64,000 nucleotides of DNA from an uncultured archaeon (GTDB lineage: Archaea; Thermoproteota; EX4484-205; JAAOZP01): positions 1 through 64,000 of the forward strand of contig CALIBN010000016.1 in assembly GCA_938045545.1 (NCBI GenBank), given 5' to 3'. Positions 20,554 through 51,230 of this stretch are shown piece after piece. The translations under genes were made by a program, and so were the position numbers. The stretch's first letter is position 1; every line of letters starts with the position of its first letter. A model generated the notes under the pieces. It saw only the letters and a list, made by a program, of their open reading frames with translations. It made no database searches and was not told where the DNA came from.

Positions 20554-20593
20554 ATGGAGAAAAATTTAATAGTGGGGTTCTCGTCCTTCTTCC

Positions 20594-20731
20594 GGTTACC
20601 GGCCATAGGAGCTGTGGAAACACCCGTACAGGGGGAACCCGCGGAGCCGTTCCGAACACGGAAGTTAAACACAGCTCCGTTTCAAACATTAGTGTGGTCT
20701 TCGGCCACGCGAGGTTTGAAAGCCGGTAACC
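20594..20731 (+). rRNA. rrf: 5S rRNA (138 nt including a 17-nt insertion)
   Basis: Terminal helix GGTTACCGGC/GCCGGTAACC; GGCCATAG and CCGAACACGGAAGTTAA 5S signatures. Confidence 0.93.
20630..20646 (+). other. Putative BHB (HBh') intron in 5S rRNA
   Basis: CCGT-AC|A-GGG-GGAA-CCC-GCGG-AG|C; removal gives a 121-nt 5S with canonical CCCGTACCCGTTCCGAAC. Confidence 0.8.
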
Positions 20732-25747: not shown

Positions 25748-26251
25748 TTACTCCAGCAGCTCGCGATTAAGATCTAAGAAGGAACTGCCCCATTTGAATT
25801 TTGAAAGAATGCTCAACGCCTGCTCTGGGAAACCAAGTATGAAGAGGGCTGCAGCCAGTGCCTCCGCGCTTGAGAGAATGTTTGGAGCACCGTAGTTAAC
25901 AGGGTTCGCCGCCAGCAGCCTGGGCAGCCTCCTCTGGAATGGTGCTTTAAGAAGATGGAAGACACTATTGTCTGTGGATTTCCAAGAGGTGTCTATAACT
26001 GTCACCCCATGTTTAACCGCAACATCCCTGTCTACTGGTGAAAGCGTTGTCAAAGCCTCAGGGTTTAAAATTATCGAGCGCTTCGGAACCTGAGATATTT
26101 TGGAGAAAACCTTAATCAGGCCGTGCTTCTTCAAGACAAGGGTTGTGCACTTCCTCGGGTCATCCGCGTGCAGATGGAGAGCGTAGAGGCAGGGGGGATG
26201 TTGAGAGTAACCCCTTTTCTGTTCGAGACGGGATTCGACTAAGCGGCCCAC
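25748..26251 (-). CDS. tsr3: 16S rRNA aminocarboxypropyltransferase Tsr3 (start uncertain)
   Basis: DDPRKCT, IDTSW and RRLPRLLAANPVNYG...LSSAEALAAAL...FKWG motifs. Confidence 0.9.
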   Translation of the reverse strand: MGRLVESRLEQKRGYSQHPPCLYALHLHADDPRKCTTLVLKKHGLIKVFSKISQVPKRSIILNPEALTTLSPVDRDVAVKHGVTVIDTSWKSTDNSVFHLLKAPFQRRLPRLLAANPVNYGAPNILSSAEALAAALFILGFPEQALSILSKFKWGSSFLDLNRELLE

Positions 26252-26496
26252 CTGGCCATCATGCGGGTTACTCATCTGGCCTGTTTGGCCTTGCTTGCCG
26301 CAGGCTGAGCCCGTTTCACACCCACTCCGAGGGTCGTCAGCGTTCTTCATCCACATTCCTCCCGGATGGGTTCCGTTTCTGTCCCAGCCTAGGGGTCTCC
26401 CCCTGCGCCTCACGACGCTGCAGCACCCGCATCAAGAAGGGAGTTTCCTCAGGCCCTCTTCGAGCCCGACACCCGTCCTTCAACTTCCCCCCTGCC
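26188..26496 (-). ncRNA. rnpB: RNase P RNA
   Basis: P1 GGCAGGGGGGA/TCCCCCCTGCC; GAGGAAACTCC and AACAGAAAAGGGGTTA conserved regions; TTTAAA promoter upstream. Confidence 0.92.
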
Positions 26497-26532: not shown

Positions 26533-29700
<3,168 letters not shown>

Positions 29701-29762: not shown

Positions 29763-31352
<1,590 letters not shown>

Positions 31353-32636: not shown

Positions 32637-32723
32637 TGGACCGGGAGGGACTCGAACCCTCGACCCTTCGAGGTCACCCATTCCGAGTGCAAGTCGGACA
32701 TTCTACCACTGAACTACCGGCCC
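32637..32723 (-). tRNA. tRNA-Ala(TGC) with 15-nt intron at 44/45 (32666..32680)
   Basis: G3:U70 pair; BHB TCGG-AA|T-GG-GTGA-CC-TCGA-AG|G restores the AGGTC variable loop. Confidence 0.92.
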
Positions 32724-37935: not shown

Positions 37936-38027
37936 GCCTCGGTAACTCAGCCTGGTAGAGTGGCAGCCTTGTAAGCGGAAAAGGCTGAGAAAGCTGTTAG
38001 GCGAGGGTTCGAATCCCTCCCGAGGCT
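37936..38027 (+). tRNA. tRNA-Thr(TGT) with canonical 37/38 intron (37974..37991)
   Basis: CTTG-TA|A-GC...GC-TGAG-AA|A BHB; full cloverleaf. Confidence 0.92.
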
Positions 38028-38890: not shown

Positions 38891-38983
38891 AGCCCCAGGT
38901 GGGCTTCGAACCCACGCCCTCCTCCATTGACGCTTTTCCAGCATTACCAAGGAGGCGCTCTAACCAGGCTGAGCTACTGGGGC
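38891..38983 (-). tRNA. tRNA-Thr(GGT) with 18-nt intron, best fit at 38/39 (38926..38943)
   Basis: CCTCC/GGAGG stem; TGGT-AA|T-GC...GC-GTCA-AT|G motif. Confidence 0.9.
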
Positions 38984-51103: not shown

Positions 51104-51230
51104 GTCGGGGTAGCCAAACCTGGTTAAGGCGCGAGATGCGCGATGTACGCGAGCCTGCTAAGCTCGTGGCCCATGAGAGTTCCATGATGGAACCACGAGG
51201 GCCGTGCGGGTTCAAATCCCGCCCCCGACG
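51104..51230 (+). tRNA. tRNA-Ser(GCT) with two introns: 30/31 (51136..51153) and variable arm (51178..51199)
   Basis: CGCG-AG|A-TGC...GTA-CGCG-AG|C and CATG-AG|A-GTTCCA...TGGAAC-CACG-AG|G motifs; spliced product folds normally. Confidence 0.88.

Follow-up and report, generated by a model that had tools for sequence, protein, structure and literature searches.

Introduction

To our knowledge, bulge-helix-bulge (BHB) introns of archaea are known from transfer RNAs (tRNAs), 16S and 23S ribosomal RNAs (rRNAs) and a few messenger RNAs (mRNAs), and 5S rRNA is treated as intron-free, its archaeal insertions being regarded as retained expansions. Here, we analyze a 17-nt insert in the only 5S rRNA gene detected in the genome of an uncultured archaeon (Thermoproteota; EX4484-205; JAAOZP01). 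The gene is located in a stretch of 64,000 nucleotides (contig CALIBN010000016.1 of assembly GCA_938045545.1, positions 1 to 64,000 of the forward strand), referred to below as the window. The insert is probably a BHB intron that is spliced out of the 5S precursor.

Non-canonical BHB introns of tRNAs have a relaxed motif (HBh' or hBH) and are processed by (alpha-beta)2 or epsilon2 forms of the splicing endonuclease EndA. The 5S insert resembles them in size (tRNA introns of the window measure 15–18 nt), in its 4-bp helix and 3-nt bulges and in the cut rule that applies to it, and genes for EndA and for the ligase RtcB are present in the same genome. It differs from them in its host and in the nature of the exon strand of the central helix (H), which is a strand of helix III of 5S rRNA, so that the putative intron would compete with a helix of the mature molecule.

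Introns and processing stems of the BHB type in 16S and 23S rRNA share with the 5S insert an rRNA host and, presumably, the same endonuclease/ligase pathway. Introns of these two rRNAs are usually tens to hundreds of nt long and may encode homing endonucleases, whereas the 5S inserts are non-coding and 17–20 nt long. PMC7714728 and PMC10515664 report BHB motifs in the precursors of rRNAs. The BHB intron of the cbf5 pre-mRNA of Crenarchaeota likewise lies outside tRNA and the large rRNAs and shows patchy gain and loss, according to the accessible part of PMC2738675; its host is protein-coding and it has no sequence relationship with the 5S insert.

Expansion segments of 5S rRNA, such as the 108/109-nt insert of Halococcus morrhuae or the loop C inserts of clostridia, are retained, whereas the present insert is missing from a contig of an RNA library (see below). 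Retention of the Halococcus insert in ribosomes was seen by cryo-electron microscopy, as stated in the available portion of PMC7530397. In the part of PMC7812874 that is accessible, expansions are described as self-contained, devoid of complementarity to the 5S core and leaving conserved motifs uninterrupted. The present insert departs from this description: its GCGG is complementary to the core, with which it can pair with BHB spacing, and it splits the conserved loop C sequence. The same text considers that sequence data alone cannot tell 5S expansions from introns.

Results

The insert interrupts loop C and has the geometry of a relaxed BHB motif

The 5S gene scored above the gathering threshold of Rfam family RF00001 (38) and was aligned across the full model with a single 17-nt insertion (Table 1). 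The insertion falls in loop C, which has 24 nt instead of the 7 of the model. The ends of the insert could be set independently of any structure, since the flanks are the same, but without the 17 nt between them, in G024, a genome of the sister genus g5, and since moving the deletion by a single base to the left or to the right alters the product. Deletion of the insert joins CCCGTAC to CCGTTCCGAAC and reproduces exactly what insert-free relatives of the class, e.g. G024, have at this place.

The central helix H associates CCGU of exon 1 with GCGG of the insert and is flanked by the 3-nt bulges ACA and AGC, and an inner stem (h') of 3 bp completes a relaxed HBh' motif. In canonical tRNA introns, cleavage occurs after the second base of each bulge. 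Application of this rule to the 5S motif excises the insert and nothing else, and restores the loop C of the relatives. When the 17 nt were shuffled with their composition preserved, 74 of 100000 trials produced a relaxed BHB at the site fixed by alignment. Thirteen places of the genome, the 5S gene included, match the insert within 3 mismatches, none of the others with fewer than 2. The full intron signature was found genome-wide in the 5S gene alone, giving no sign of paralogous introns or of transposition.

A first-pass annotation of the window had proposed a 17-nt intron at this place. The Rfam alignment and direct reading of the sequence both locate the insert where it had been put; the HBh' pairings (CCGT/GCGG, ACA, GGG-GGAA-CCC, AG/C) are as it described them, and its two predictions, cuts that remove exactly the insert and a canonical loop C as product, were borne out. 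Only the lengths that it gave, 138 nt for the gene and 121 nt after removal, have to be corrected to 137 and 120 nt on the basis of the Rfam ends.

The insert is conserved and its inner stem covaries among relatives

The class consists of one order with 26 genomes, 24 of which have a 5S match. As the first-pass annotation had suggested, related genomes were compared through RF00001, and an insert at the same site (hereafter type 1) was present in 15 of the 24: 12 of the 15 genomes of the window's genus, both genomes of genus g4 and the single genome of g6. An insert at a second site of loop C (type 2) was found in two genomes, G018 and G020, which are the two members of g3 in a sister family. 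The remaining seven (three from the window's genus, three from g5 and one from g2) have none. Outside the class, no 5S match longer than 122 nt was detected among 151 genomes sampled from the phylum. Insert-bearing 5S genes scored 46–55 bits against RF00001, compared with 69–101 bits for the listed insert-free genes of the class.

An exon-specific pattern was then scanned against one genome per species (185,579 species) and gave 14 stretches, all from metagenome-assembled genomes titled Brockarchaeota, Thermoproteota or similar. In metagenomes, 78 contigs matched the flanking pattern, 19 with inserts of 17–19 nt and 59 without. The insert is present in all ten genus-like contigs. Neither in genomes nor in metagenomes did we encounter DNA that combines these exons with absence of the insert; the exons of all 59 insert-free metagenome contigs are unlike those of the window, with at most 28/35 and 62/85 identities.

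Genomes and metagenomes together provided 18 distinct type-1 variants that could be aligned in register. All 126 pair cells are occupied by standard pairs, including the 54 cells of the three inner-stem pairs. Two of these three pairs are changed on both sides (GC, AU, GU and CG types). The covariation score was reached by none of 500 shuffles, and sliding the partners lowered pairing to 37–45%. RNAalifold independently predicted H, the bulge and h'. The sequence and length of the loop vary freely, and GCGG, ACA and A(A/G)C are fixed in all variants. As judged from the alignment, such a pattern is what one would expect were GCGG required to pair with an exon strand held constant by helix III; a free-standing expansion hairpin would not be expected to show it.

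The three insert-free members of the window's genus (G004, G005 and G013; loci L018, L015 and L017) are identical to the window exons at about 108 of 120 positions (hand count). They show four differences within 8 nt at the former splice site, where they read CCCGCTC/TCG instead of the CCCGTAC/CCG of insert-bearing genes, together with a compensating change in the helix III partner. These changes fit a relaxed constraint after intron loss, but they represent a single event.

A second site shows the same geometry

The type-2 inserts of G018 and G020 sit between CCGAA and CAYGG. Both can form an H helix UCCG/CGGG with 3-nt bulges (AA/A, then CG/C or AA/C), and the predicted cuts lead to the canonical loop C sequence. 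In addition, G018 has an outer helix of 4 bp, and the inner stem of G020 has 4 bp and one extra base. An H helix appeared at this site in about 2.7% of shuffles. By our own count we take the two sites to lie at about 36/37 (type 1) and 46/47 (type 2) in the E. coli numbering, the first presumably within positions 34–37 of loop C. The occurrence of the same predicted geometry at two different sites is hard to explain by an expansion segment.

One RNA-library contig joins the exons

Four RNA runs (X1, X3, X4 and X21) were compared with the window. X3, prepared from sediment RNA, contained one contig of 118 nt that reads, on the + strand, 20693–20722, then AAACACCCGTAC (20618–20629), then 20647–20722. 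It joins 20629 directly to 20647, skipping exactly the 17 nt, with 88/88 identities to the exons, and the depth of this library on the flanks of the 5S gene was zero. A splice junction in RNA is what the first-pass annotation had proposed to look for. It is seen once, but at a depth of about 5 and in a contig of odd topology, which leaves splicing unproven. No alignment was obtained with X4 (contigs) or X21 (about 3% of its raw reads), which hence provide no test of splicing.

The contig also bears on whether the exons, once cut, are ligated. BHB geometry predicts cleavage only, and fragmented rRNAs generated by removal of intervening sequences are known in bacteria (PMC7812874, available part). 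The mature 5S could then consist of two pieces of 35 and 85 nt held together by helices I–III. This seems very improbable: the contig runs without interruption from 20629 to 20647, RtcB is encoded in the genome, and the products of BHB cleavage are normally ligated in archaea.

Splicing weighed against a retained expansion

Several observations weigh against splicing. The motif is not a strict hBHBh' structure, as its outer helix h has 0 bp and bulge 2 is left without a closing helix. Since the insert is G-rich, the H helix alone was formed by 13386 of the 100000 shuffles. Among the 18 variants, H is always paired yet invariant, and covariation neither supports nor opposes it. In the minimum free energy (MFE) structure at 37 °C, helix III is kept and the insert folds separately as a small, expansion-like hairpin of loop C. 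The X3 contig is single, its depth is low (5.07) and DNA in the library is possible. An identical stretch of 30 nt is present at both of its ends, as expected of a cyclic assembly path (circumference 88 nt), and it holds an unexplained permuted join (20722 to 20618). Run X1 yielded only an insert-bearing contig of 95 nt from a related variant, at a depth (35.6) equal to that of a contig extending into the upstream flank (36.4); this run was flagged as probably DNA and is uninformative on splicing. Finally, the relaxed BHB scanner returned 3 to 45 chance motif-like matches per 5S, insert-free ones included. It was rejected as stand-alone evidence and kept only at the site defined by alignment. 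The motif carries weight only because it is located on a site that the alignment had defined beforehand.

The folding difference is small. The BHB conformer lies only 0.5 kcal/mol above the MFE structure at 37 °C and is itself the MFE structure at 55 and 70 °C. The pair probability of GCGG with CCGU is about 0.31 at 37 °C and 0.62 at 55 °C. When 14 type-1 genomes were folded, the number with H in the MFE structure rose from 4 at 37 °C to 10 at 55 °C and to 13 at 70 °C. RNA runs that have words in common with the query region bear the labels hot spring, microbial mat or sediment.

The main alternative, which we consider unlikely, is that the 17 nt stay in mature 5S rRNA as a loop C hairpin, tolerated or used by the ribosome. 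Besides the fold at 37 °C, such retention has precedents. In the available text of PMC7812874, retained 5S expansions of 13–109 nt are documented, and loop C 34–37 is given as the least obstructed site, where bacteria tolerate retained expansions; this last point adds to those that speak against splicing. The covariation of the inner hairpin fits a retained segment equally well, and the direct RNA evidence opposing it amounts to the single low-depth contig. However, retention leaves unexplained the invariant GCGG, complementary to a helix III strand, the fixed 3-nt spacers and the BHB geometry of the second-site insert. According to the same accessible text, expansions avoid conserved motifs in all but one case, whereas this insert splits those of loop C, and archaeal expansions were found in Halobacteriales only. 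In the X3 contig, exactly the 17 nt are absent.

The permuted join of the X3 contig was also considered as a BHB site and rejected, as no 4-bp helix is found in either arrangement (hand check). It could possibly derive from a circular RNA originating from 5S or from cDNA circularised during library preparation. Circular RNAs derived from 5S are reported for Sulfolobus in the available part of PMC3326292.

The interrupted gene is the only 5S copy detected

A single 5S match was found in the source genome (2.03 Mb, 92% complete, 51 contigs), and each of the 17 insert-bearing genomes of the class likewise has just one. An insert-free 5S gene elsewhere, which the first-pass annotation had named as an argument against its proposal, was detected neither in this genome nor in the 17. 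A BRE/TATA-like element precedes the gene (Table 1) and is kept at equal distance in all 15 same-genus genomes displayed; a similar element is found upstream of 5S in G019 and G023. From its distance to the 5S 5' end, which we take to be usual for archaeal TATA elements, it may act as the 5S promoter.

As the genome is incomplete and fragmented, a second copy could be missing from the assembly. The interrupted gene could then be disabled or silent, with a normal 5S gene in the unassembled part, an explanation that we find hardly credible. Exactly one match per insert-bearing genome argues against it, as does the presence of the insert in every genus-like metagenome contig. Moreover, a silent copy is unlikely because the sole 5S match has a conserved promoter element, exons that are almost invariant among insert-bearing relatives, and a whole RNA that folds strongly in comparison with shuffles (z = -6.18).

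Splicing enzymes and intron-containing tRNAs of the same genome

Two genes with the EndA domain PF01974 were found in the genome, in the regions G000:C40:22985-23242 and G000:C42:20751-21008. The product of 187 aa has Tyr/His/Lys-like residues by eye. That of 200 aa is devoid of the His and gave weak matches to subunit-beta models, all below cut-offs. From these sequences, the pair shows the pattern of an (alpha-beta)2 enzyme and would form a heterotetramer-type endonuclease. This form is one of the two EndA types able to cut non-canonical introns, as stated in the accessible part of PMC5829648. RtcB is also encoded (486 bits).

The ligase gene is a single open frame of 984 aa (G000:C12:87383-90181, - strand; loci L041/L042). 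Its Pfam match is split in two (model positions 3–50 and 46–426) about 1.5 kb apart, which looks like an intein within the gene.

Two tRNA introns of the window served as controls. For tRNA-Thr(TGT), the scanner and the cut rule gave a clean tRNA, and the Rfam tRNA match shows a 20-nt insertion at the intron position. For tRNA-Ala(TGC), a BHB candidate with H TCGG/TCGA leaves a 72-nt tRNA-Ala. As tRNA-Ala is obtained with a second candidate too, the precise limits of this intron are less certain.

Two further tRNA matches were observed in the window (Table 1). One has an insert of about 20 nt, for which two neighbouring BHB candidates, one of them giving a 20-nt intron, lead to tRNA-Pro(TGG) or tRNA-Thr(GGT), leaving its ends ambiguous; the better candidate is a relaxed HBh' motif without outer helix, as in 5S. 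The other, of 127 nt, could not be read by ARAGORN, and one trial removal gave an implausible tRNA-Ser. It probably carries two or more introns.

Other features of the window

Besides the 5S gene, the window contains a 16S-23S-RNase P RNA cluster and several tRNAs that carry insertions. The 5S gene is unlinked to the 16S-23S operon: it lies on the opposite strand and appears to have a promoter of its own. The RNase P RNA gene is located 87 nt downstream of 23S on the same strand and may be co-transcribed with the operon. Such an arrangement is described for one operon of Methanococcus maripaludis in the available text of PMC10515664. In 16S, an insertion of about 20 nt relative to the archaeal model was noted in a variable hairpin.

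Table 1. Coordinates of the 5S rRNA gene, its predicted splicing motif and other RNA features of the window
Feature	Position	Strand	Basis or remark
BRE/TATA-like promoter element, GAGAAAAATTTAATAG	20557-20572	+	centre of the TATA core about 27 nt ahead of the 5S 5' end
5S rRNA gene, precursor form, 137 nt	20595-20731	+	Rfam RF00001, 49.7 bits, model 1-120
Exon 1, 35 nt, ends ...CCCGTAC	20595-20629	+	comparison with insert-free 5S; last 12 nt directly followed by exon 2 in the contig of X3
Predicted intron, 17 nt, AGGGGGAACCCGCGGAG	20630-20646	+	missing in same-flank relatives; skipped exactly in the X3 contig
Exon 2, 85 nt, begins CCGTTCCGAAC	20647-20731	+	insert-free relatives and X3 contig
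H(a) CCGU (DNA CCGT), exon strand of the central 4-bp helix; 5' strand of mature helix III	20624-20627	+	pairs with 20641-20644
Bulge 1, A C / A; 5' cut predicted at 20629/20630	20628-20630	+	unpaired in the BHB conformer
h' inner hairpin GGG-GGAA-CCC (20631-20633 with 20638-20640)	20631-20640	+	pair probability 0.88
H(b) GCGG, intron strand of the central helix	20641-20644	+	invariant in 18/18 distinct variants
Bulge 2, A G / C; 3' cut predicted at 20646/20647	20645-20647	+	no outer helix
RNase P RNA	26196-26488	-	
23S rRNA	26575-29658	-	
16S rRNA	29805-31302	-	
16S rRNA insertion, about 20 nt	~31040-31124	-	archaeal model positions ~193-198
Control intron in tRNA-Ala(TGC), non-canonical position, 15 nt	32666-32680	-	Rfam insertion after the anticodon arm
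Control intron in tRNA-Thr(TGT), canonical position, 18 nt	37974-37991	+	after removal by scanner and cut rule, ARAGORN reads a clean tRNA-Thr of 78 nt
tRNA with insert of about 20 nt	38891-38983	-	neighbouring BHB candidates
tRNA match, 127 nt	51104-51230	+	39.4 bits

Discussion

The 5S insert is most likely an intron of a known kind in a new host, found at two sites in one archaeal class. Searches of the literature, which did not extend to supplementary files such as Table S1 of PMC7812874 (where expanded 5S rRNAs are listed), revealed no description of a BHB intron in 5S rRNA, in line with what the first-pass annotation had guessed about its novelty.

The following scheme probably accounts for these data. 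Transcription of the 5S gene would start from a TATA-type promoter of its own. CCGU, a strand of helix III, would pair in the precursor with the GCGG of the insert rather than with ACGG, its partner in the mature molecule. The 4-bp helix so formed, with the bulges ACA and AGC on its two sides and a 3-bp hairpin at its end, would constitute the relaxed HBh' motif. A heterotetramer-type EndA built from the two paralogs would cut after the second base of each bulge. The exons would be ligated by RtcB and CCGU would re-pair into helix III to give a canonical 5S rRNA of 120 nt. EndA and RtcB are thus the presumed agents, and the spliced molecule the presumed ribosomal form.

A broader version of this scheme, which we regard as doubtful, is that the whole class makes its only 5S rRNA by tRNA-type splicing, with introns gained at two sites of loop C. 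As the intron would sequester a strand of helix III, splicing would then act as a folding or assembly checkpoint that ties 5S maturation and the biogenesis of the 50S subunit to EndA and RtcB, and the permuted 88-nt contig would hint at circular RNAs formed from spliced 5S.

For annotation, it should be kept in mind that insert-bearing 5S genes score barely above the Rfam threshold, and "expansions" of archaeal 5S rRNAs deserve to be checked for BHB geometry. The patchy distribution in the class (15 type 1, 2 type 2 and 7 without insert, n = 24) offers material on the gain and loss of introns. If the proposed splicing is confirmed, this would be the first BHB intron seen in a 5S rRNA, and a third rRNA would join the substrates of archaeal splicing. 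It would also be a natural case of an intron that competes with a helix of the mature RNA, and maturation of 5S rRNA would depend on EndA and RtcB throughout the lineage.
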